From Porticoccaceae bacterium (lineage in GTDB: Bacteria > Pseudomonadota > Gammaproteobacteria > Pseudomonadales > Porticoccaceae), in NCBI GenBank assembly GCA_018663035.1, contig JABJEX010000013.1, positions 4,409 to 68,408 of the forward strand: a DNA stretch of 64,000 nucleotides, read 5' to 3'. The stretch's first letter is position 1. Every line of letters begins with the position of its first letter. Position numbers and translations under genes: made by a program. Below the pieces are notes generated by a model that made no database searches, had not been told where the DNA came from, and was given only the letters and a program-made list of their open reading frames with translations. Of the stretch, positions 42,475-53,241 are shown piece by piece.

Positions 42475-43893
42475 ATGCCTGAGGCCAAACAGCATACCCA
42501 GCAAAAATTTATTGTCGGTGGTTTATTACTGCTCGGGGGCTTTGTGTTTTTGCTGCTTCCCAATATGGTAACCGAGCCTTGGATTGCAGCTGATGATAGT
42601 TCAACGGCACCAGTGGCGCCCGCTCCTTTAGTTAGTCCATCCACAGCCGCAGAAAAAACCAAGTATCGACAGGACTCACAGAAAGTATTGGCTCAAATTA
42701 TCGTGGCACGCGATAGCCTTCAAGAACGTTCCGTGGAGTACTGGGGTGACTTTGATTTCCGTCAGGCGATAGCGCTGGTGGATCAGGGTGACGAACAGTA
42801 TGGCTATGGCAATTACCGCGAATCATTGGCGAGCTATCAACAGTCACTGCTTGAGCTTCAAAGGTTGCAAGATAAAGCGCAAATCACTCTGGAAAACGCT
42901 CTAGCCGACGCCTCCAACGCTATCGAAAACGCCCAGCCGGGAGATGTTGCCATTGCTCAACAGGCAGCAAACACTGCCATAACCATAGCTCCTGACGACA
43001 GTAGATCGCAGCAGATTCTTGCGCGCACCAGCCAATTGGAAGCACTCGTCGAGGCATTGCAACTGGGTGAACAGCATCTGCAAAGAAAAGAACTAGCAAC
43101 TGCTAAAGCGTACTTCCAAAAAGCGTTGGCTCTTGATGGCCAGCATAAAAAAGCTACTGCTGCGCTGAGCTCTGTAGACCAAGCCATAGTAGAGCAGACA
43201 TTTCGCGGCTATATGAGTCGCGGTTTTAAAAAACTTGAAGACAATAATTTCGATGCTGCCACTGCAGCCTTTAACGAAGCAGGTAGAATCTACACTAATC
43301 ATCCAGCTGTAGATCAGGCTCTTTCACAGTTAGAGACAAGGCGCTCACAACTTACTGTCAGTCGGCAGATGCGGGAGGCAGCCGCCTTTGAGCGCCAGGA
43401 AGACTGGCAAAAGGCGCTAGCGCTGTATCAGGCACTGTTAAAAACCGACCCCTCACTTACCGAGGCTAGCGTTAGAACCGTAGGCGTCACTGTGCGAGCC
43501 AATTTAGACGAACAACTAAAAATGGCGCTTAAAGACCCCCTAGCGCTGTCTTCACCTAATGCCTACAACAGAGCCCAGAGGCTGGTCACAGATGCAGACA
43601 GCATTAAAAACCCAGGGCCTAAACTGCAACAACAGGTCTCAGAATTAAAGCGGCTATTGCAACAGTCCACAGTAGCCGTGAACGTAGAGCTGAGATCCAA
43701 CAACCTAACTGAGGTCACATTGTTTAGAGTCGCCGAGCTGGGCACCTTCGAAAATACCTCATTACAGCTGCGCCCTGGGCGCTATATTGCCGCAGGCACC
43801 CGCCTAGGTTTTCGAGACGTGAGAGTTGAATTTACCATTAGCGGCGAGCCCCTAGATCAACCCATTTGGGTAAGCTGCGAAGAAGCAATCTAA
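42475..43893 (+). CDS. Membrane-anchored periplasmic TPR protein with a C-terminal PEGA-like beta domain
   Basis: One N-terminal TM helix, a long helical/TPR region, and LQLRPGRYIAAGTRLGFRDVRVEFTI. Confidence 0.75.
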   Translation: MPEAKQHTQQKFIVGGLLLLGGFVFLLLPNMVTEPWIAADDSSTAPVAPAPLVSPSTAAEKTKYRQDSQKVLAQIIVARDSLQERSVEYWGDFDFRQAIALVDQGDEQYGYGNYRESLASYQQSLLELQRLQDKAQITLENALADASNAIENAQPGDVAIAQQAANTAITIAPDDSRSQQILARTSQLEALVEALQLGEQHLQRKELATAKAYFQKALALDGQHKKATAALSSVDQAIVEQTFRGYMSRGFKKLEDNNFDAATAAFNEAGRIYTNHPAVDQALSQLETRRSQLTVSRQMREAAAFERQEDWQKALALYQALLKTDPSLTEASVRTVGVTVRANLDEQLKMALKDPLALSSPNAYNRAQRLVTDADSIKNPGPKLQQQVSELKRLLQQSTVAVNVELRSNNLTEVTLFRVAELGTFENTSLQLRPGRYIAAGTRLGFRDVRVEFTISGEPLDQPIWVSCEEAI

Positions 43894-44022: not shown

Positions 44023-46098
44023 GTGACTATGCTCGGAAAAAATAATAATCAGCATCTATCCGCTACAGACTTCACACCACTCGACCAGGTAGCTAGCCAA
44101 CGTCGTCTGCCATTTTCTCCCGGCGTATTGGCACTGGTTTTACTTGCCGCCAGTGCCGCTGTGATAATGCTATATCTGGTTATAGCTCGCGCGGTGATTT
44201 TTCAAACAGAGCCAGAGAGTGCCGAGATAACGATTAGCGGCCTTTCATTTAACATAGGTGACAATTATCTACTGTTGACCGGCGTCTATCAGGTTGAGGC
44301 CAGCGCTGATGGTTACCATCCCCTGACCCAGAATATCGAGGTCACCGAGCAAGCAACTCAGAACGTCAAACTGGAGCTACAACCATTGCCAGGCAACCTC
44401 AGTGTCAGCTCAGAACTGACCGAGATAGAGGTCAGTATTGATGATGAACTCCGATCAACAGTGCCAGGCACGATAGAGGGCATTAACCGTGGGCTGCATC
44501 AAATCGAGTTTAAAAAATACCGCTATTTTCCATTGCAGCAAGAAATTGACATAGTCGGCCTGGGCACCACCCAGTCTCTAAATGTCTCCTTATTGCCCGC
44601 CTGGGGTGAGATGCATTTTGACTCCCAACCTCAGGGTGCCGATCTATATATTGATGATCGACCTGTCGGCCAAACCCCCTTGAAAACCGAGGTGTTGGAA
44701 ACTGGCAGTAAACTCAGATTGGAATACCCAGGCTATAAAACCTATACCAAGCAGGTGACTGTTAAAGCGGGCACTTCGGAGCAACACGAACTGATTAAGA
44801 TGATAGTTTCGGACGGTACGCTGCGAATCAGCAGCATGCCAGAGGGCGCCAATATCACCATCGACAGTCAATTTTTTGGCACCACCCCCGTTGATCTACC
44901 CCTAGCACCTTTTAAACAATACGACGTTGGGTTGTTTCTGGAGGGCTATATAAAAACCACTAAAAAGGTCAGTCTGGAGCCGGAGAAAACCACTGCTATG
45001 CAGGTTAGGCTGCAGCCAAATATCGGTAGCATTGCCTTGACCATAAGCCCAGCTGATGCGCAGATATTGATCGACAATAGGGATCAGGGCACTGGTAGCC
45101 GTACCCTGTCATTAACTGCCAAGCCGCACACGCTCACAGTTACTAAGCCAGGCTACGAGCCTAAATCTCTAACGGTTACTCCTAGGCCAGGGCATCAGCA
45201 GGCGCTCAATATCAAACTACTGACTCTTGAAGATGCCTACTGGGCATCTCGCCCCCCTGTAATAAAGAGCCCAGTTGGCTCAGAGTTAAAGCTTTTCCGT
45301 CCACAGCAGAGCTTCATCCTGGGTGCACCTCGCCGGCAACCGGGTCGACGAGCCAATGAGGCCGAGCGCAACGTTGGTCTGGAGAGACCCTTTTACCTGG
45401 GACGCAAAGAAATCAGCAATACCCAGTTCCGACGATGGCAAGAGCACAGCTCCTCAGCCATTAAAGGCCAGTCATTAGATATGAATAACCAGCCAGTGGC
45501 CAACGTCTCCTGGGAACAGGCCGCCCTGTTCTGTAACTGGCTTAGTCGTCAGGAGGGGCTCCCACCCTTTTATCTGATTGAAGACGGACTGATCAGTGGC
45601 TTTGACTGGGAGTCTCATGGTTATCGCCTACCCACAGAGGCAGAATGGGCCTGGGCGGCCAAGGTAAACAACGATGGCAATTCAGAGATCTTCCCATGGG
45701 AGTCTGGGCTATACCCGCCGATCAATGTACTAGACAACTATGCAGATCAGAGTGCTGCCAAGTTTCTTAGCTTTACCATTGCGAACTACAACGATAACTA
45801 TCCAGTCTCTGCGGACATAGGTAGTTTTAAGCCCAATAATAAGGGGCTCTACAATATGAGTGGCAATGTCTCAGAATGGGTCAACGACTTCTATGATATA
45901 CGCCCACATCGCGGCGCGCCTATCATGGACCCTAGGGGCCCGATTAGTGGTAATCGTCATGTTATTCGTGGCGCTAGCTGGGCACTTGGATCACGCACTG
46001 AACTGCGCCTGAGTTACCGTCAGGCTGGCACAGACGGTCAACTGGATGTAGGCTTTAGAATCGCCCGCTATGTTGATAGCCCCGGAGTCACACCATGA
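44023..46098 (+). CDS. PEGA-repeat protein with a C-terminal FGE-sulfatase (SUMF1/C-lectin-fold) domain
   Basis: One TM helix and several PEGA repeats (SQPQGADLYIDDRPVGQTP; SSMPEGANITIDSQFFGTTP). FGE motifs EISNTQF, PVANVSWEQA, RLPTEAEW, GLYNMSGNVSEW, RGASW and GFRIAR. Confidence 0.9.
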   Translation: MTMLGKNNNQHLSATDFTPLDQVASQRRLPFSPGVLALVLLAASAAVIMLYLVIARAVIFQTEPESAEITISGLSFNIGDNYLLLTGVYQVEASADGYHPLTQNIEVTEQATQNVKLELQPLPGNLSVSSELTEIEVSIDDELRSTVPGTIEGINRGLHQIEFKKYRYFPLQQEIDIVGLGTTQSLNVSLLPAWGEMHFDSQPQGADLYIDDRPVGQTPLKTEVLETGSKLRLEYPGYKTYTKQVTVKAGTSEQHELIKMIVSDGTLRISSMPEGANITIDSQFFGTTPVDLPLAPFKQYDVGLFLEGYIKTTKKVSLEPEKTTAMQVRLQPNIGSIALTISPADAQILIDNRDQGTGSRTLSLTAKPHTLTVTKPGYEPKSLTVTPRPGHQQALNIKLLTLEDAYWASRPPVIKSPVGSELKLFRPQQSFILGAPRRQPGRRANEAERNVGLERPFYLGRKEISNTQFRRWQEHSSSAIKGQSLDMNNQPVANVSWEQAALFCNWLSRQEGLPPFYLIEDGLISGFDWESHGYRLPTEAEWAWAAKVNNDGNSEIFPWESGLYPPINVLDNYADQSAAKFLSFTIANYNDNYPVSADIGSFKPNNKGLYNMSGNVSEWVNDFYDIRPHRGAPIMDPRGPISGNRHVIRGASWALGSRTELRLSYRQAGTDGQLDVGFRIARYVDSPGVTP

Positions 46099-46334
46099 AA
46101 ACAGTCTTATTCTTGCTGCTAATGCCCCTGCTGGCACTAGCCCAACAACCGGATGCTGATACCAGCGGCCAGGGTACCAGCCCTGAGCCAATAGAAAGCC
46201 CTGAGCCAATAAACAGCCCTGAGCCGGAAGAAAGCCCTGAGCCTACAGAAAGCCCCGAACCCCAAGACATTGACTTCAAACCCAGCGAAGAGATATCTGA
46301 AGATTTCCCAGTTCCTCTTCCAGCAGACATATAA
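46095..46334 (+). CDS. Small secreted acidic Pro-rich protein
   Basis: Signal peptide (LLALA|QQ), five SPEPxx repeats and tail FKPSEEISEDFPVPLPADI; overlaps the upstream stop (ATGA). Confidence 0.75.
   Translation: MKTVLFLLLMPLLALAQQPDADTSGQGTSPEPIESPEPINSPEPEESPEPTESPEPQDIDFKPSEEISEDFPVPLPADI
46179..46268 (+). repeat. Coding 18-bp tandem repeat x5 encoding SPEPxx
   Basis: agccctgagccaatagaa / agccctgagccaataaac / agccctgagccggaagaa / agccctgagcctacagaa / agccccgaaccccaagac. Confidence 0.92.
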
Positions 46335-46360: not shown

Positions 46361-47182
46361 ATGAACAGTTCAACCAACCGCTCAACCAACGAGTTGTTTT
46401 TCCAGATAGTAGCACTGCTACTCGCGGTGATAATTGTCCACACCATCTTTGTCACTGTGGTGCGTCCCAACGCAGAGAGTACCATTCGCCAGCATGCCGA
46501 AATGGCTGCCGCTGGAGAGGACTACGTGGTGCCAAGATCATTTTTTATTGTCATTAAAGATCTTGAACAGGAAGCCTGTTTTATCCTGATGTTCTGGGCA
46601 CTGGCGATTATGGGCTACAAGACTCGCACCAGTATTCGTGAAAACAAAATGCTGCAAAAGCCACTAATCTCCATCGCTGAGGGTTCGCGAGTGCTACCAG
46701 AGGACGCAGCGCAGCTAGCTCGCCCATTGCAAGCATTACCCGAGGTAGAGCGCAGCTATCTGCTACCCCGCGCGCTGCAAACCGCTCTGACCAGATTTCA
46801 GGTTACAGCCAGCGTACAATTTGCTACCGAGGCAGTGACCAATGTCTGCGAAACTGAAAATGATCGGCTCGACTCTGAATTGTCCATGGTTCGCTACATA
46901 ACCTGGGCCATTCCCTCGATTGGATTTATTGGTACAGTGCGAGGTATTGGCGCGGCTCTGGGTCAGGCTCATGAAGCTATGCAAGGGAATATTGCTGGGG
47001 TTACTAGCAGCCTTGGAGTCGCCTTTAACTCAACATTTATCGCACTGCTAATCAGCATGGTGGTGATGTTCTTTATGTTTCAACTGCAACTTATTCAGGA
47101 ACGTCTGGTACTTGATTCTCAGGCTCACTGTGAAAATAACCTGCTGCGCTTTTTAAAGGCGCCCAAAGCGACGCAGTCCTAA
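46361..47182 (+). CDS. MotA/TolQ/ExbB proton-channel family protein
   Basis: AIPSIGFIGTVRGIG matches the TolQ/ExbB PxxGLxGTVxG motif, followed by LGVAFNSTFIALL. It carries extra N-terminal TM helices. Confidence 0.92.
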   Translation: MNSSTNRSTNELFFQIVALLLAVIIVHTIFVTVVRPNAESTIRQHAEMAAAGEDYVVPRSFFIVIKDLEQEACFILMFWALAIMGYKTRTSIRENKMLQKPLISIAEGSRVLPEDAAQLARPLQALPEVERSYLLPRALQTALTRFQVTASVQFATEAVTNVCETENDRLDSELSMVRYITWAIPSIGFIGTVRGIGAALGQAHEAMQGNIAGVTSSLGVAFNSTFIALLISMVVMFFMFQLQLIQERLVLDSQAHCENNLLRFLKAPKATQS

Positions 47183-48441
47183 TGACCACAGCTGTTTTAG
47201 ACCTCAATGATCAGAATCTGTTGATCCAGACAGAGGATGGTACCCTGTATGCAGAACCAGGCTTCGCTCAGCTGACCACCACAGGAATAGACACGGGTGA
47301 TCGTGCTAAAGACCGTGCCTGGAAAGAGCCACAACAGAGTTACAATGACTATTGGCGGCAACTGAATCAACTTCCACTGCCCAGCAGGCAGCCACTGGCT
47401 CGCCACCATGCAGATATCGCCTTTGCCCAGCTAAAGAGGCTATATGAGATCGCCGGCTCTCCAGAAGACCTTATTATTGCGGTACCAGGCAGTTTTTCCG
47501 ATCAACAATTATCCCTGCTGCTTGGTTTAGCCAGCGCCATACCCACTCGGGTAAAAGGCGTTATAGATAGTGCCCTTGCCTGCTGCCCGCAACAGCAAAC
47601 AACCCTTTTAGTAGAGCTACAGCTACAACAGGCAGTTATTAGTCTGATAGAAGAAAATCAGGGCATCAGAAGCATAAGCCAGCAAGAGGTGATACCAGAT
47701 CTTGGAATCTTGCATCTCTACAACGCCGCTGCTCGGCATATCAGTGAGCAACTTATCGCTGACTACCGCTATGACCCTTTGCACACCTCAATTGGCGAGC
47801 AGACAATTTATGATCAGCTACCAAATTGGTTAATGCAGCTGAGCTGGGCAGACGAGGTTTCATTCAATGTTCCCACAGCCCAGGGCGAGCTAAATTTGAT
47901 ACTTCGCAAACACCAGATTGCCGCACTATTTGAGGAACGTCTTGCCAGTTTAAATACCATTATCAAAAAACACCCTCAGGCCAACCTGTGTTTTTCTCAT
48001 GGTGCCGGTGTGATTCCCGCCCTACTGCCACAGTTTTCTGAGGCACAGGTCTGCGCGCAGAACGCCGGCATAGAGCAGTGTTTTAGACTGCAAGCTCAGT
48101 TATCAGGGGAACAGCTGCAGCGCGTTAGCCAGATACAAATACTCGAGCACACCGGTGAGACGCCGACTACGACACCGCATCATGCGACCCATCTGTTGTA
48201 TCAGAACCATGCCTACCCTCTCGATCATCCGATTAGCATCCATATCAAAGAGAATCAGCTAAGCCTGATTAGCGCGATTGATAACCGCGCCGCCTGTGTA
48301 CTGATTTTAGAGGAGCAAAAATTGAAAGCTCTGCATCAGCAGAGCGACCTTGAGGTAAAAGTGCCCAGCGTCTGCCAGCCGGGAAAAATCGTCCAGATCG
48401 CAGAGCACAGCCTGCGGCTTATTGAGGTAAGCAATGCCTAA
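47182..48441 (+). CDS. Cytoplasmic protein with a degenerate Hsp70/actin-like domain and an FHA-like C-terminus
   Basis: LIIAVPGSFSDQQLSLLLGLA...VKGVIDSALA parallels the DnaK motif AVITVPAYFNDAQR...VKRIINEPTAA. The C-terminus QPGKIVQIAEHSLRLIEV parallels the end of FHA domains. Confidence 0.6.
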   Translation: MTTAVLDLNDQNLLIQTEDGTLYAEPGFAQLTTTGIDTGDRAKDRAWKEPQQSYNDYWRQLNQLPLPSRQPLARHHADIAFAQLKRLYEIAGSPEDLIIAVPGSFSDQQLSLLLGLASAIPTRVKGVIDSALACCPQQQTTLLVELQLQQAVISLIEENQGIRSISQQEVIPDLGILHLYNAAARHISEQLIADYRYDPLHTSIGEQTIYDQLPNWLMQLSWADEVSFNVPTAQGELNLILRKHQIAALFEERLASLNTIIKKHPQANLCFSHGAGVIPALLPQFSEAQVCAQNAGIEQCFRLQAQLSGEQLQRVSQIQILEHTGETPTTTPHHATHLLYQNHAYPLDHPISIHIKENQLSLISAIDNRAACVLILEEQKLKALHQQSDLEVKVPSVCQPGKIVQIAEHSLRLIEVSNA

Positions 48442-49489
48442 AAAGCGTCGCAATATAGCCTTCAGTCTTTCCTTTCTGGATATTATGGCCTGTGGCTTTG
48501 GTGCTGTGACATTGCTGTTTTTAATTCTTCGCCACAATGCTGCCGAGGTGGTTACCCCAGATCTGCGTATCGCTGCAGAGGTAGACATGCTGCAGATGGA
48601 TATTCGCCAAGCCGAGGAAGAGAGAGTTGAGCTGCTCAATAGCCTTCAAGAAATTCAACTCCAGTTGGTTGAGGCTCAGGGCCTCTCACAAAGAGTGATT
48701 ACCGATCTTCAGGAACAGGAAAACAGTATTCAAAACGACCCCAATGATCTGGACAGGCTTCGCCGTCAAGTGGAACGCCTCGAAGAAGAGACTGCGCAGA
48801 TGGAAGAGGTGGAGTTTGGTGACCGCGTGCGCGAATTTCAGGGCGATGGCAATCGCCAATACCTGACGGGACTAAAATTAGGTGGGGAACGGGTTCTTAT
48901 TTTGGTGGATGGCTCCGCTAGTATGCTAGCAGATACAGTGGTCAATGCTGTGCGACGACGCAATATGGAGGACAGCCAAAAACAGCAGTCTGCAAAATGG
49001 CAGTGGACATTGCGGACGCTGGAATGGCTGCTCGCTCAACTACCGCCCAGCAGCCGCTTTCAAGTCTATGTATTTAATACGCAGGCACGGCCCGCTCTTG
49101 AAGGAACAGAGGGTGAGTGGCTGGACGCAGCAGATTCTCTTGCCCTAGAGCAGGTAGTTGCAGGTATCAAAGAATACTCTCCCGGTGAAGGCACCAGCCT
49201 GTTCAATGCCTTTACGGCTATTCGAGACTTTGAAGATAAACCGGATAACCTATTCCTGTTAACCGATGGACTGCCCACTCAGGGAAAAAGCCCGCCGAAA
49301 AAATATATGGTCAGTGGTAAACAACGCCGCAATCATTTTTCGACTGCCATCGATCTGCTGCCGAGGGGTCTACCTGTAAACACCATTTTGTTTCCCATGG
49401 AAGGTGATCCAGAGGCAGCAGCACTATTTTGGCAGACAGCATTAGATACCAATGGCGCGTTTATAGCGCCTTCAAGAGACTGGCCCTAG
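48434..49489 (+). CDS. ExbD/TolR-like anchored coiled-coil VWA protein 1
   Basis: Basic N-terminus, TM helix LSFLDIMACGFGAV (Asp16), a long coiled coil, and a VWA domain with MIDAS DGSAS and LLTDG. Confidence 0.85.
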   Translation: MPKKRRNIAFSLSFLDIMACGFGAVTLLFLILRHNAAEVVTPDLRIAAEVDMLQMDIRQAEEERVELLNSLQEIQLQLVEAQGLSQRVITDLQEQENSIQNDPNDLDRLRRQVERLEEETAQMEEVEFGDRVREFQGDGNRQYLTGLKLGGERVLILVDGSASMLADTVVNAVRRRNMEDSQKQQSAKWQWTLRTLEWLLAQLPPSSRFQVYVFNTQARPALEGTEGEWLDAADSLALEQVVAGIKEYSPGEGTSLFNAFTAIRDFEDKPDNLFLLTDGLPTQGKSPPKKYMVSGKQRRNHFSTAIDLLPRGLPVNTILFPMEGDPEAAALFWQTALDTNGAFIAPSRDWP

Positions 49490-49498
49490 GTTAATGCT

Positions 49499-50488
49499 AT
49501 GAAAAAACAACGTAGAGAACTTCAGGAAGCGAGCCTCTCATTTCTAGATGTCATTAGCTGTGGTTTTGGCGCCATAGTGCTGTTACTGGTAATCGCGAAA
49601 GTGGGTGACCCCTCAGCGCTAGAGGAGGCAGAAAAACAACTGCTTGGCTCAGTAAAGGACTATCAGGAAAAGCTCTTTGATATTCGTGGTGAGGCAGTGA
49701 TTCTCGATCGGCGTCTAAAATCCCGTCAGGAGCAGCTCTCAGATCTCAATGAGCGAATAGCCCGTCTCAAAGAAAAACTGGCCAGCGTTGCCAAACAATC
49801 CAACCAGCTGTCGCAATCCCAGTCACGAGAAAAAGAACAGCTACAGCTGGTGCTTCAGGTGCTCTCAGAAGAAATGCAGCGTCTGCTAGGGCCGGAATTT
49901 CAGCGCAAAAATCAGTTGATCGGCGGTATACCAGCAGACAGTGATTATATTATTTTTGTCATAGATACCTCAGGTAGCATGCAGGTAGCAGCCTGGGAAA
50001 AAGTAAAAAAGGAGATGCTCAATATTCTCGATATATACCCCGAGGTCAAGGGGCTTCAGGTGCTTAATGATATGGGCCAGTACATGTTCAGTGCAGAAGA
50101 AGGCCGCTGGATAGCAGACAGCCCTGGCATGAGAAAAAACATCATAGATCAGCTGACAAACTGGGCGCCCTTTAGTAACTCAAGCCCAGTGGAAGGAATC
50201 AATGCAGCTATTCGAACCTTTTACAAGCCGGGCCGTAAAATCAGTATCTATACCCTAGGTGATGATTTTCAGGGGCGTTCAATTCGCAAGGTAGTCAAAG
50301 CTGTTGACCAGTTAAATAAAGCCCATCGTGGCAGCGACCGACTAGTGCGCGTCCACGCTATTGGGTTCCCTGTGCACTTCCCCCCAGGGGGCACCCCAAG
50401 CGCATCGGCCGTTAAGTTCGCCGCATTGATGCGCGAACTAAGTTACAACAATGGAGGAACCTTTATCGGGTTAAATAGCCTTAACTAA
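49499..50488 (+). CDS. ExbD/TolR-like anchored coiled-coil VWA protein 2
   Basis: Basic N-terminus, TM helix LSFLDVISCGFGAI (Asp17), a long coiled coil, and a VWA domain with MIDAS DTSGS and TLGDD. Confidence 0.85.
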   Translation: MKKQRRELQEASLSFLDVISCGFGAIVLLLVIAKVGDPSALEEAEKQLLGSVKDYQEKLFDIRGEAVILDRRLKSRQEQLSDLNERIARLKEKLASVAKQSNQLSQSQSREKEQLQLVLQVLSEEMQRLLGPEFQRKNQLIGGIPADSDYIIFVIDTSGSMQVAAWEKVKKEMLNILDIYPEVKGLQVLNDMGQYMFSAEEGRWIADSPGMRKNIIDQLTNWAPFSNSSPVEGINAAIRTFYKPGRKISIYTLGDDFQGRSIRKVVKAVDQLNKAHRGSDRLVRVHAIGFPVHFPPGGTPSASAVKFAALMRELSYNNGGTFIGLNSLN

Positions 50489-50501: not shown

Positions 50502-51146
50502 ATGTTGAATATAAATAGACCTGACGGAAGCGGACAAAAAACCTCAATTAAAGTCCTTTTGGGCTTGGGTTTACTACTATTGCTGAGTGGCTGCAGCAGC
50601 TCCTCCTCGGTGACAGTAGATCAGGAATTTCCAACCGTGCTAGCTGTTCCCAAGCCGGTATCTGCCAGCATCGTCTTCGACGAAAGCTTCAGCACCTATC
50701 TTGCTCAGCCCAATGAAAAAACACAGATTGCTCTGGGGACTGCTCAGGTAAAACTGTTGCGCAACGCCTTTACCGGCCTCTTTGAAGAAGTCGAGTTTGT
50801 CAGCAGCAAAGAACAGATCACTAGTACCAATGGCCTTGTGATTATCCCCTCGGTGAGAGAGGTACAGGTCTCGACCCCATCAGACAATTATCTCAATGTA
50901 TTTGAAGTCTGGATCAAATATAACTTAGACATTGAAACCGCTGATGGCGAGACAATAGATAGCTGGTTTATGCCGGCCTATGGCAAAACCCCCGATGCGT
51001 TTATGGCCTCGAAATCAAGTGCCATTGAAGACGCCGCAGTCATTGCTCTTCGGGATGCTGGCGCCAAGTTGATGCTGGACTTTTATCGTATTCCTGCAAT
51101 TTACGGCTGGATGATGGAACAGCAAATATTGGAGGACTCAAAATGA
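50502..51146 (+). CDS. Uncharacterised lipoprotein
   Basis: Lipobox LSGC; 214 aa; translationally coupled to the next gene. Confidence 0.75.
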   Translation: MLNINRPDGSGQKTSIKVLLGLGLLLLLSGCSSSSSVTVDQEFPTVLAVPKPVSASIVFDESFSTYLAQPNEKTQIALGTAQVKLLRNAFTGLFEEVEFVSSKEQITSTNGLVIIPSVREVQVSTPSDNYLNVFEVWIKYNLDIETADGETIDSWFMPAYGKTPDAFMASKSSAIEDAAVIALRDAGAKLMLDFYRIPAIYGWMMEQQILEDSK

Positions 51147-51805
51147 ATACTCTGACCAAATTCACTGGTATTGGCCTATTTTTAATTGTTTTAAGTGGCT
51201 GTACAGCCACCACCACTATTGATGAGTATCGTCCATCGACTGAAGCCATAGACCTCAATAGTGACGAAAAAGTCGTTATTCTCGGCCGTCGTGATGCAGG
51301 CCACTACGAAACTGACCGAGAATTTATTCAATGTGTTGCCGGAAAAATGAAAGGTGCTGATATTTCAGTACTGCCCGAACAGACTTTTATTGATTCTATT
51401 TACCCCTGGTTTGAACCACGTACTGCGCCCAAGGGCCTGCCCAGACTCAAGCGTCTGATGCAAGACCCCAGTGTTAAAGCCCAGGTTGACCGGCAGTCAG
51501 TGCGCTATTTGGTATGGTTAGATGGTTCCACGGAAACTCTGGATCAGGGTGGCTCTATCAGCTGTGCTGTCGGCCCCGGTGGTGGTGGCTGCTTCGGCTT
51601 CGCCCAGTGGGACAAACTCTCAGTGTACGAAGCCATAGTCTGGGATATGACCAATCTTCAGGAAATGGGTCGACTTCGAGTGGACTCCGAAGGCACCTCT
51701 TATCTGATTGGTGCCGTAGCACCGATCCCCCTGCTAACACCCGTCAAGAGTGATGCCTGCTCCAGCTTGGGCAATCAGCTTAAATCATTTTTCTCGGCGC
51801 CTTAA
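51143..51805 (+). CDS. Uncharacterised Cys-containing lipoprotein
   Basis: Lipobox LSGC; contains ISCAVGPGGGGCFGF and two further Cys residues. Confidence 0.75.
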   Translation: MNTLTKFTGIGLFLIVLSGCTATTTIDEYRPSTEAIDLNSDEKVVILGRRDAGHYETDREFIQCVAGKMKGADISVLPEQTFIDSIYPWFEPRTAPKGLPRLKRLMQDPSVKAQVDRQSVRYLVWLDGSTETLDQGGSISCAVGPGGGGCFGFAQWDKLSVYEAIVWDMTNLQEMGRLRVDSEGTSYLIGAVAPIPLLTPVKSDACSSLGNQLKSFFSAP

Positions 51806-51810
51806 CTCTT

Positions 51811-53241
51811 ATGCCTTTACTGACTCAAACCTTTAAGCATCGCTGGTCGATAATCTTTATGGTCAGCTTACTAAGCCTGACTCCAGCGACTGCTCTGTCC
51901 GCAGTTAGCGGCGCTGACATCTACAAAGAGGTGCTAGAAAGCACCAATATTTATAAAGACGAAAAGCTACAGGCCTACATAGAAAGGCTCGGCAATGAAA
52001 TTGTCGCTCAATCAGAAATGGCTGGGGAGACCTTTATATTTACCCTGCTCGACTCGCCAGATCTCAATGCCTTTGCCACCAGAGATAACTATATCTACGT
52101 CAATCGCGGGCTGCTCAATTATGTCAGCAATGAGGCTCAGCTGGTTTCTGTACTTGCCCATGAGGTGGGCCATATCACTCGCAATCATGTGCGCGGACAG
52201 GAAGGCCAGGCTACGGGAGCGCAGATTCTCTCTACCATCGCTGCAGTGCTCTCTAATAGCTCAGAGGTATACGAGGCCGGCATGGCCTACGCCAACTCAT
52301 TGATACGAGGCCATGGCCGCCGCAACGAATTGGAGGCAGATGAAGCTGGTGCAGAATATATGGCCAAACTCGGATATGACCCCAACGAAATGCTGGGCAT
52401 GCTGTCAATAATGAAAGACTATGAGTCCCTGACAAAACAGCGCGCTAAATCCAAAGGTGCCAGCAAACAGACTTACCATGGGATTTTTTCTACGCATCCG
52501 CGCAATGACAGCCGTCTGCGTACCGTGGTCAGTAAAGCAAATGCCTTTAAATCTGAAATCACCAGGGATAATGGTGCCGCCAACTACAGAGCACTGACCG
52601 ACGGTCTAGTCTGGGGTGAAAACTTTCTTGCTAAGGAACAAAAACTGCAGCGCTTTTCAGATATGCGTCTGCGGGTACGCCTGGATTTTCCACCCGACTG
52701 GATCCAAGATAAGCCTGCTAGTGGGCTATTAGCCAGTGCCACAGCACCAGATAAAAAGGCTGACATGAGCATGCAGGTCATTGCCCGCACGGCTCAGAGC
52801 CCGGAAGAGTATCTCTACAACTATCTTAAAGTCTCGCAACTAAAAAATGGCACAGCCATAGCACCGGCGAGACTAAAGGGCTTTACCGGCATACTGCCCG
52901 GCCAAGAGGGTGATCCGGATACTCGAATCGCAGTAATTTATTACAAGTTGAATGCCTATTTGCTGAGTGGCACGGTTGAGGAGCCGACTAGCTTTAATGA
53001 TATTGATAAGAGCTTTATCGCCTCAATTAATACCTTTCGGCCGATTTCCAGTCGAGAAATTGCTGGCCAAAAACCTCAGACCGTTCGCTATGTAAAAGCC
53101 ACGGCCGCCACTACCTTTGAGGCACTGGCAAAGACCCTTAAACTGAGCAGCGCGGATGTTGAAGATCTGCGTATAATCAACGGCTACTACCCCAGTGGCG
53201 AGCCCGCCGCAGGCGAGTGGATTAAAATCTTTAAACGCTAG
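51811..53241 (+). CDS. M48-family zinc metalloprotease (BepA/YfgC-like) with a LysM-like C-terminus
   Basis: LNAFA, VLAHEVGH (HExxH), ELEAD and FSTHP motifs. The C-terminus TTFEALAK...LRIINGYYPSGEPAAGEWIKI is LysM-like. Confidence 0.9.
   Translation: MPLLTQTFKHRWSIIFMVSLLSLTPATALSAVSGADIYKEVLESTNIYKDEKLQAYIERLGNEIVAQSEMAGETFIFTLLDSPDLNAFATRDNYIYVNRGLLNYVSNEAQLVSVLAHEVGHITRNHVRGQEGQATGAQILSTIAAVLSNSSEVYEAGMAYANSLIRGHGRRNELEADEAGAEYMAKLGYDPNEMLGMLSIMKDYESLTKQRAKSKGASKQTYHGIFSTHPRNDSRLRTVVSKANAFKSEITRDNGAANYRALTDGLVWGENFLAKEQKLQRFSDMRLRVRLDFPPDWIQDKPASGLLASATAPDKKADMSMQVIARTAQSPEEYLYNYLKVSQLKNGTAIAPARLKGFTGILPGQEGDPDTRIAVIYYKLNAYLLSGTVEEPTSFNDIDKSFIASINTFRPISSREIAGQKPQTVRYVKATAATTFEALAKTLKLSSADVEDLRIINGYYPSGEPAAGEWIKIFKR

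Follow-up and report, generated by a model that had tools for sequence, protein, structure and literature searches.

What does a soluble protein with Hsp70-like features do among the genes of a membrane motor? The question is raised by an open reading frame (ORF) located at 47182-48441 in a 64,000-nucleotide stretch of DNA (in the following termed the window) from a Porticoccaceae bacterium (assembly GCA_018663035.1, contig JABJEX010000013.1, positions 4,409 to 68,408 of the forward strand). The ORF lies between a gene for a MotA/TolQ/ExbB-like channel subunit and the first of two genes for proteins with a von Willebrand factor type A domain (VWA1 and VWA2). A previous reading of the letters and translated ORFs, made without database searches (in the following termed the sequence-only reading), had proposed a degenerate, catalytically dead Hsp70-like ATPase fused to an FHA-like domain, which would attach to the motor from its cytoplasmic side and may read phosphothreonine (pThr). 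Its observations on the ORF are confirmed, i.e., coordinates and motifs are correct, the product possesses neither a signal peptide nor a transmembrane helix (the N-terminus MTTAVLDLNDQ... is not hydrophobic), and the gene overlaps both the stop codon of the MotA-like gene and the start codon of VWA1. Its interpretation is partly supported by the analysis reported here. The explanation favoured by us, to which we assign a little better than an even chance, is that of an adaptor which has an Hsp70 fold, is not catalytic and is placed at the cytoplasmic side of a TolQ-like/transpore helix (TPH)-vWA motor, ancestrally phospho-regulated and now a constitutive subunit. The positions of all features are compiled in Table 1.

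Fold and nucleotide-binding motifs of the N-terminal region

Searches with the ORF protein and with a 22-sequence profile against Pfam, NCBIfam, PADLOC and the sequences of the PDB yielded no meaningful match; weak matches to nucleoproteins and ABC transporters (E 0.2-0.9) were put down to chance. Structure prediction was more informative. An AlphaFold2 model of the ORF protein built with 22 homologues (mean predicted local distance difference test score, pLDDT, 82.4; predicted template-modelling score, pTM, 0.70) displays two beta-beta-beta-alpha-beta-alpha-beta-alpha lobes in residues 1-310, followed by a disordered Thr/Pro-rich linker and an all-beta domain (residues 337-414). Comparison of this model with the PDB by Foldseek revealed 385 matches at E<=1e-3, the best 50 of which are without exception nucleotide-binding domains (NBDs) of Hsp70 proteins (E 3e-16 to 5e-14; TM-scores 0.55-0.68), among them those of DnaK, mortalin, Hsc70, Ssb1 and non-hydrolysing Ssz1 (5mb9, 6sr6, 4gni). 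Entries for MreB, FtsA or PilM are not present among these best 50 matches. The actin/Hsp70 fold postulated in the sequence-only reading is borne out by this structural comparison, the model showing a two-lobed Hsp70/actin (ASKHA) fold to be retained in the N-terminal 310 residues.

At the level of sequence, Pfam detected no match of the ORF protein to HSP70 (PF00012, E<=0.01) or to the MreB, FtsA and PilM families; one distant family member matches MreB_Mbl at E 0.0023, short of the Pfam cut-off. A search of the own genome with PF00012 recovered DnaK, HscA, MreB and a paralogue of 476 amino acids (aa), not the ORF product. Alignment of the ORF family with the NBDs of DnaK and HscA of the same genome by hhalign is collinear and not significant (E 0.012 and 0.05, respectively); these non-significant alignments pair LIIAVPGSFSDQQ with AVITVPAYFNDSQ of DnaK, and RYDPLHTS..EQ in the region of the IIB helix with GDPLAMQRLKEAAE. 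Since the hhalign E-values are not significant, the Hsp70-like assignment is a structural rather than a sequence-based one, and no homology is claimed at the sequence level.

Three segments occupy the topological positions of the Hsp70 phosphate-1, connect-1 and phosphate-2 motifs in the model, in agreement with their placement in the sequence-only reading. VLDLND (residues 5-10) belongs to beta1-loop-beta2 of lobe I (strands 3-8 and 13-17, loop 9-12), LIIAVPGSFSDQQL (residues 97-110, 47470-47511) corresponds to beta4 plus helix and is followed by VKGVIDSALA (residues 124-133, 47551-47580), and LLVELQLQQAVISLI (residues 142-156) is part of beta1-loop-beta2 of lobe II (strands 141-146 and 151-159, loop 147-150). 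D129 is conserved at the position of DnaK E171. The two modelled hairpins, N9-D-Q-N12 and Q147-L-Q-Q150, are found where Hsp70 has G-T-T-N and G-G-G-T, respectively, and the adenosine motif VGG.TR.P is replaced by FSHGAGVIP. Neither the hairpin loops nor the adenosine motif keep the Hsp70 glycines across the family, as inspected in 22 close, 30 diverse and 7 members of a kinase-bearing sister clade (see below). The close relatives read ELNDQN and ELQLHQ, and the 30 divergent members ELND.., D[IL]QLHQ and LSHR..LPG, with L148 being nearly invariant. The loss of the phosphate-binding glycines, originally noticed in the single window copy, hence applies to all aligned family members. Because the glycine loops are replaced by conserved N, D, Q, H and L residues, the NBD-like domain is most likely a rigid binding scaffold and not an ATPase; judged from motifs and model, ATPase function was probably lost and the cleft retained as a binding surface. 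It is reasonable to term the ORF product catalytically dead.

The same domain could be viewed as a nucleotide-dependent protein of the Hsp70/actin type with non-canonical loops, which assembles, polymerises or remodels the motor, either in the role of a chaperone devoted to it or by forming filaments like MreB/FtsA. Both lobes of the fold are kept in full with their IB/IIB-like inserts, the family has conserved acidic residues where DnaK has D8, E171 and D194 as well as a basic RHH cluster near the position of K70, and the loops lining the cleft are under strong purifying selection. We nevertheless regard such a protein as unlikely, since bulky residues have replaced the three glycine motifs family-wide (NDQN, QLQQ/QLHQ, SHG/SHR), no Pfam match to HSP70 or MreB exceeds the cut-off, and the proteins of the operon match neither DnaJ/J-domain, GrpE nor a substrate-binding domain.

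Hsp70 (DnaK, HscA, Hsc70 and in particular non-hydrolysing Ssz1 of the ribosome-associated complex) is the best structural match of the ORF protein. Both have in common the ASKHA fold with IB/IIB-type inserts and the order of NBD, linker and beta-sandwich, with a local sequence echo at connect-1 and the IIB helix. In contrast to Hsp70, the ORF protein has no Pfam HSP70 match, lacks the glycines of the phosphate-1, phosphate-2 and adenosine motifs, has a domain shorter by about 70 residues, a beta-sandwich that is FHA-derived and not substrate-binding, no J-protein or GrpE partners, and is encoded in the context of an envelope motor. As an additional observation, the segment following the NBD (48106-48141, forward strand; family consensus L.FVT.LP, here GEQLQRVSQIQI) is aligned by hhalign with the hydrophobic interdomain linker LLLDVIPLSLG of HscA, which is of the Hsp70 type (E 0.05, not significant).

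Position in the operon and contact with the motor

The gene is tightly embedded in its operon. One nucleotide is shared between the stop codon TAA of the MotA-like gene (47180-47182) and the ATG of the ORF at 47182, and the ATG of VWA1 at 48434 is located inside the ORF, resulting in an overlap of 8 nucleotides. Synteny of the operon was observed in 65/65 genome loci as far as the contigs reach, with the start/stop overlaps being kept in these as well as in the metagenome loci. Overall, more than 100 loci were examined, and in every one that covers the junction the Hsp70-like gene is flanked by the MotA/TolQ-like gene on one side and by the first VWA gene on the other. Its position is fixed and translationally coupled.

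A motor class of this type was predicted in 2025 from TolQ-like genes tightly linked to heterologous vWA pairs, the products of which carry an N-terminal 'transpore helix' with the aspartate of ExbD/TolR/MotB and occur without tolR/exbD; the vWA proteins were proposed to rotate within the pentamer (PMC12204202). The window agrees with this description in a PF01618 gene, two VWA genes with SFLD(I/V) transmembrane motifs and the absence of any ExbD/MotB match from the operon, and differs from it in the Hsp70-like gene, the main text of that study containing no cytoplasmic Hsp70-like, actin-like or FHA gene and no kinase-TPR fusion. By analogy, the motor would consist of a TolQ/MotA-like pentamer and two ExbD-like transpore-helix-vWA proteins, be driven by protons and be situated in the envelope. 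The ORF product would then be an accessory subunit of this motor, soluble in the cytoplasm and seated on the TolQ-like pentamer from that side.

Of 401 genomes sampled evenly across the phylum, 19 were found to have a TPH-vWA protein and three, including the own genome, a member of the Hsp70-like family. Four operons of this motor type without the Hsp70-like gene were examined; they share the order exported protein, TPR, PEGA-FGE, MotA-like, VWA1 and VWA2, with the MotA-like gene running straight into VWA1, and 3/4 also keep the upstream lipoprotein. The hidden Markov model of the Hsp70-like family did not score in any of these four. This census shows the Hsp70-like gene to be a motor accessory that is present in a minority of such operons.

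A candidate docking site is provided by the cytoplasmic loop of the MotA-like protein. The loop signature EG.S.LPEDAR...RP.QALPE.ER.YLLPRAL is found only in operons with the Hsp70-like gene, as opposed to a shorter, unrelated loop in the operons devoid of it. The docking at the cytoplasmic side of the motor envisaged in the sequence-only reading is a reasonable assumption. The parallel drawn there to the Agl-Glt gliding machine of Myxococcus is likewise a fair one, as one of the cytoplasmic FHA domains of GltG has a predicted interface with the AglR pentamer (PMC11761067). There as putatively here, an FHA domain at a MotA/TolQ-type pentamer is accompanied by an actin-fold protein (MreB in Agl-Glt) on the cytoplasmic side. 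The FHA domain of GltG, however, belongs to a membrane-spanning TonB-like protein (FHA, transmembrane helix, TonB-C-like), whereas it is fused to a soluble pseudo-Hsp70 here, and MreB is an active, filament-forming ATPase encoded elsewhere.

The contact might also be made to a different part of the motor. PilM, FtsA and similar adaptors with an actin fold recognise short peptide stretches in their bitopic partners, and a PilM-like clamp would grip the N-terminal tails of the TPH-vWA proteins (MPKKRRNIAFSLSF... and MKKQRRELQEASLSF...) instead of the MotA-like loop, thereby holding the rotor dimer as PilM holds PilN. Such a clamp would be in line with the overlap between the ORF stop and the VWA1 start, and with the conserved basic N-terminal tails that precede the transpore helix in both VWA proteins. 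Operons without the gene possess the same basic tails, however, and these tails comprise only ~10-15 residues and would lie inside or at the mouth of the pentamer; moreover, Foldseek ranks the Hsp70 NBDs first, with PilM and FtsA missing from the best 50, so that a clamp of this kind appears quite unlikely. PilM and FtsA resemble the ORF product in being soluble proteins of the actin superfamily encoded beside, and presumably bound to, bitopic membrane partners; they differ in that they bind ATP, keep the glycine loops, have no FHA domain and are not the best structural matches of the model.

The FHA-derived domain, its kinase-bearing relatives and the proposed mechanism

Residues 331-419 were folded alone with 34 homologous segments from the window and the genome loci. 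The isolated domain is modelled as an eight-strand sandwich (pLDDT 92.8; AlphaFold2), compared to about eleven strands in canonical FHA domains. FHA domains head and dominate its Foldseek matches (KIF1A, ArnA, GarA, Ki-67, Rv0020c and YscD/PscD), yet only with E 0.27-3 and TM-scores of 0.3-0.5. A profile of 18 divergent C-termini, in turn, matches the FHA domains of KIF13B (1.2e-4), Ki-67 (1.6e-4), EmbR (6.8e-4; nearly full length) and EssC (1.5e-3) in the PDB. Some family members have a precomputed Pfam FHA match or bear the UniRef name 'FHA domain-containing protein'; the ORF protein itself has no match to Pfam FHA (PF00498). The FHA-like nature of the C-terminus claimed in the sequence-only reading is hence upheld with respect to its origin, which is traced via the distant members, while the resemblance of this particular copy is weak (Foldseek E >=0.27). 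With respect to the pThr pocket, the positions of the GR Arg and the SxxH Ser/His read IHIK and DNRAAC, and the NG loop is removed by a deletion of 8 residues. The C-terminal 85 residues are FHA-derived and devoid of a recognisable phosphothreonine pocket.

A sister clade of these operons encodes a protein kinase. The orthologues of the transmembrane-TPR protein of the window in these metagenomic relatives (~770-780 aa) consist of an N-terminal Hanks-type Ser/Thr kinase (Pfam Pkinase), a transmembrane helix and a TPR region. HRDIKASN and DFG motifs are present, and the C-terminal end is in common with the window protein. Two such kinase-transmembrane-TPR orthologues are located at L099:2455-4791 and L103:2088-4397. 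Among the loci with enough upstream sequence, the kinase is present in 12 and absent from the rest; the window operon is without kinase. Whether the transmembrane-TPR protein of the window lost its kinase domain or never gained one, both would lead to its present form.

FHA domains were compared across 9 kinase-bearing and 34 kinase-less loci, the latter including the window; L011, L062, L067, L137, L145, L165 and L178 as well as the frameshifted L104 were left out of these counts. A G[IV]SRxH motif is present in 8/9 kinase-bearing versus 0/34 kinase-less loci, and a Pfam FHA match at E<=0.01 in 9/9 (best 5.3e-14; 43.9 bits for L099 at a cut-off of 20.7) versus 0/34. Additionally, Yop-YscD_cpl (Pfam) is matched by 8/9 of the kinase-clade proteins. 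The suggested inspection of homologues for the GR/SxxH motif gave a divided result, with the SRxH motif being retained in all but one of the kinase-bearing loci and missing from every kinase-less one. In a tree built from the N-terminal 310 residues only, a single branch splits the kinase-bearing from the kinase-less group (SH-like approximate likelihood-ratio test, SH-aLRT, 99). Since a decayed FHA domain would hardly return to the canonical form, the kinase-bearing state is read as ancestral for the gene-carrying operons and the state of the window as derived. The pairing with a protein kinase in the relatives suggests a phospho-controlled motor accessory, and pThr reading is plausible in the kinase clade. 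For the ORF product, in contrast, the earlier proposal that it may read phosphothreonine found no support: the pocket residues are absent, kinase-less loci show no Pfam FHA match, and the operon has no kinase.

It would still be conceivable that the window copy reads pThr marks set by a kinase encoded elsewhere. The own genome harbours a single ORF of the Pkinase family (616 aa, soluble, catalytic loop HGDIKPSN; contig C5, L102:253-2103, minus strand), the domain is preceded by a Thr-rich linker, and it is under purifying selection. This kinase-like ORF, however, adjoins a 2-oxoacid dehydrogenase E2-like gene and is unrelated to the operon, the Foldseek similarity to FHA is sub-significant, and the Pfam FHA model has no match in the own genome; together with the missing GR Arg, SxxH Ser/His and NG loop and the contrast in Pfam FHA matches to the kinase clade, this renders pThr reading by the window copy highly improbable.

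Both states of the domain have counterparts in secretion systems. Type VI secretion is controlled by an FHA/kinase pathway (PpkA kinase, Fha1/TagH), and the FHA folds of YscD in type III secretion are pocket-less and structural. The kinase clade resembles the former, in which a transmembrane Hanks-type kinase and an FHA protein control an envelope machine, and the window copy resembles YscD/PscD, whose FHA folds lack the residues for pThr binding and have a structural role; the FHA-like domain of EssC (type VII secretion) was also compared. Different from these systems, the present one would be a 5:2-type motor powered by the proton motive force (PMF) and not a secretion system, its FHA domain is fused to an Hsp70 fold, and no PppA-type phosphatase was seen in the operon.

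An exhaustive profile search assigned 1,479 clusters at 50% identity to the family, with named sources in SAR92, Porticoccaceae, SAR86, Pseudohongiellaceae, metagenome-assembled genomes (MAGs) of the Lysobacterales type and other Gammaproteobacteria, mostly of marine provenance. No other core gene of the operon evolves as rapidly as this one (27-81% identity across the genome loci, compared to 58-97% for the MotA-like protein). Ratios of non-synonymous to synonymous substitution rates (dN/dS) lie between 0.04 and 0.16 in the NBD and between 0.06 and 0.30 in the FHA-like domain, with dS being saturated in some of the compared pairs. Judged from these ratios, both folded domains are under purifying selection, and the linker is the sole part with relaxed constraint.

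On these grounds, the following mechanism is envisaged for the non-catalytic adaptor. In the ancestral module, a sensor kinase probably signalled via a pThr mark to an FHA/pseudo-Hsp70 adaptor, which in turn gated the motor or set its position. Where the operon encodes the kinase, this cytoplasmic domain would be controlled by the periplasmic TPR sensor, the pThr mark may be placed on the motor or on the Thr-rich linker of the adaptor itself, and the FHA domain would read this mark, with the motor becoming engaged or released. In the SAR92/Porticoccaceae lineage, the kinase would have disappeared and the FHA pocket decayed thereafter, both domains still being under purifying selection. The window protein would most likely serve the cytoplasmic loop of the MotA-like protein as a structural partner, constitutively and independently of phosphorylation. 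A more far-reaching version, which we consider possible and advance only tentatively, is that of a new control layer for 5:2-type proton motors, in which the TPR-kinase writes pThr and the FHA/pseudo-Hsp70 protein clamps or releases the TolQ-like loop in the manner of a clutch, the SAR92 version having become 'hard-wired' after loss of the kinase.

Several points weigh against the adaptor and its proposed history. The fold call rests on a predicted structure, the sequence similarity to Hsp70 being not significant. The acidic residues kept at the positions of DnaK D8, E171 and D194 (D7/E7, D129 and E145/D) make non-canonical binding of metal or nucleotide possible. Docking on the MotA-like protein is putative, and phylogeny confounds the signature of its loop, the operons devoid of the gene being those of distant lineages. 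The association of kinase and canonical FHA domain is perfect but represents one evolutionary event, as the tree shows a single change, and for the same reason does not lend itself to a statistical test of correlation; its direction, i.e., kinase loss or gain, is argued solely from the unlikelihood of re-evolving a canonical FHA domain. That the gene is a mere passenger or decaying remnant unrelated to the motor is barely credible, for despite its rapid evolution and its absence from most operons of this motor type, its position and coupled overlaps are invariant across deep divergence, dN/dS is well below 1 in both domains, and the frame is intact in a streamlined genome of 2.0 Mb.

Genomic surroundings and biological meaning

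The co-directional operon is long. It comprises, in this order, genes for a TPR-like secreted protein, a Gly/Ser-rich lipoprotein and an exported protein of 417 aa, the transmembrane-TPR gene, a gene for a transmembrane-PEGA-FGE-sulfatase-fold protein (44023-46098), a small secreted ORF, the MotA-like gene, the Hsp70-like gene, the two paralogous genes for transmembrane-coiled-coil-VWA proteins, and genes for two lipoproteins, an M48 peptidase and a peptidyl-prolyl isomerase (PPIase)-like protein.

Table 1 Features of the Hsp70-like gene, its product and the neighbouring motor genes in the window
Feature	Position	Strand	Remarks
Pseudo-Hsp70 NBD fold, Thr/Pro-rich linker and FHA-derived domain	47182..48441	+	Open ORF, 419 aa + stop
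Lobe I of actin/Hsp70 fold, residues 1-137	47182..47592	+	beta-beta-beta, helix 72-90, beta4 96-101, helix, beta5; AlphaFold model, Foldseek
Phosphate-1 loop position, D7-L-N-D-Q-N12 (Hsp70: D-L-G-T-T-N)	47200..47217	+	No glycine; D10 invariant in family
Connect-1-like stretch LIIAVPGSFSDQQL...VKGVIDSALA (Hsp70: AVITVPAYFNDSQR...VKRIINEPTAA)	47470..47580	+	Most Hsp70-like part; hhalign, conservation
Lobe II, residues 138-310	47593..48111	+	IIB-like helical/beta insert 176-263; conserved RYDPLH..GEQ.IYDQLP.WL motif
Phosphate-2 loop position, E145-L-Q-L-Q-Q150 (Hsp70: D-L-G-G-G-T)	47614..47631	+	No glycine; family consensus D-[IL]-Q-L-H-Q
Adenosine motif position, LCFSHGAGVIPAL (Hsp70: ILVGGQTRMP)	47986..48024	+	Family consensus LLSHR..LPG; GG pair gone
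Thr/Pro-rich linker, residues 311-334, TGETPTTTPHH	48112..48183	+	Low confidence; pLDDT <50 at residues 323-330; dN/dS 0.1-1.2
FHA-derived eight-strand beta-sandwich, residues 335-419	48184..48438	+	AlphaFold2, Foldseek, distant-member profile
MotA/TolQ/ExbB-like channel subunit	46361..47182	+	Pfam PF01618, 3.8e-13
Cytoplasmic loop of MotA-like protein, SIAEGSRVLPEDAAQLARPLQALPEVERSYLLPRAL, residues 104-139	46670..46777	+	Candidate docking site; alignment of 11 MotA-like proteins
VWA1: ExbD-like transpore helix with Asp (SFLDIMACGFGAV), coiled coil, VWA domain	48434..49489	+	VWA match
VWA2: paralogous transpore helix with Asp (SFLDVISCGFGAI), coiled coil, VWA domain	49499..50488	+	VWA match
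Transmembrane-TPR protein, orthologue of the Ser/Thr-kinase-transmembrane-TPR protein of the sister clade	42475..43893	+	Without kinase domain; starts directly at transmembrane helix

The small ORF between the PEGA-FGE and MotA-like genes (46095-46334, forward strand) codes for 79 aa with a signal peptide, SPEP repeats and a conserved tail. Matches to it are found at the same position in most of the 65 genome loci, and the kinase-bearing loci with gene calls (L099, L103, L104) have a gene of 95-107 aa there. The two lipoprotein genes and the M48 peptidase gene downstream (50502-53241, forward strand) accompany kinase-less operons carrying the Hsp70-like gene; those kinase-bearing operons that were examined have unrelated genes immediately behind VWA2. 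A reduced operon was encountered in the SAR86 cluster (L100/L101), with no gene calls for PEGA-FGE or TPR proteins upstream of the MotA-like gene and with genes for a divergent FHA/Yop-YscD protein and a trypsin-like protease on the opposite strand.

Two of the homologues are conspicuous for other reasons. A contig labelled as Rhodothermales MAG (L032) contains an operon of the gammaproteobacterial type (46% identity to the ORF protein, 73-74% for the MotA-like and VWA proteins), which suggests mis-binning or horizontal transfer. The C-terminus of homologue P0370 (L104:8001-9422) is an Arg-rich nonsense sequence, in place of the canonical FHA domain found in its near-identical relative P0348; this most likely results from an indel error in a long-read assembly.

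An assignment of the operon to Zorya-like defence systems was rejected. The ORF protein has no PADLOC match, and the operon lies on the chromosome in conserved synteny and encodes envelope proteins; the MotA-like gene itself has only a marginal PADLOC match to ZorA (E 0.004). The described 'conflict systems' with vWA, Hsp70, FGS and PEGA domains are different, being centred on MoxR-vWA and GTPases, and do not cover this operon (PMC7159879). No description of the family or of its architecture was found in the literature, and Pfam and NCBIfam hold no annotation for the family. The family and its pseudo-Hsp70/FHA architecture appear to be undescribed, inside a motor class known to date from prediction alone.

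Motors of the MotA/TolQ/ExbB type power flagella, Ton, Tol-Pal, gliding and Zorya. To our knowledge, the regulation of their cytoplasmic faces is largely unknown outside the flagellum. The present family offers a concrete cytoplasmic partner for a motor class predicted only in 2025, and its split into kinase-bearing and kinase-less operons represents a natural experiment, in which the FHA pocket would have decayed after loss of the kinase. Testable predictions follow for the phospho-control of a PMF-driven motor and for the retention of pseudoenzymes as scaffolds, next to a better annotation of abundant ocean bacteria. Should the clutch-like control prove true, this would be the first Hsp70 fold recruited as a non-catalytic stator accessory.

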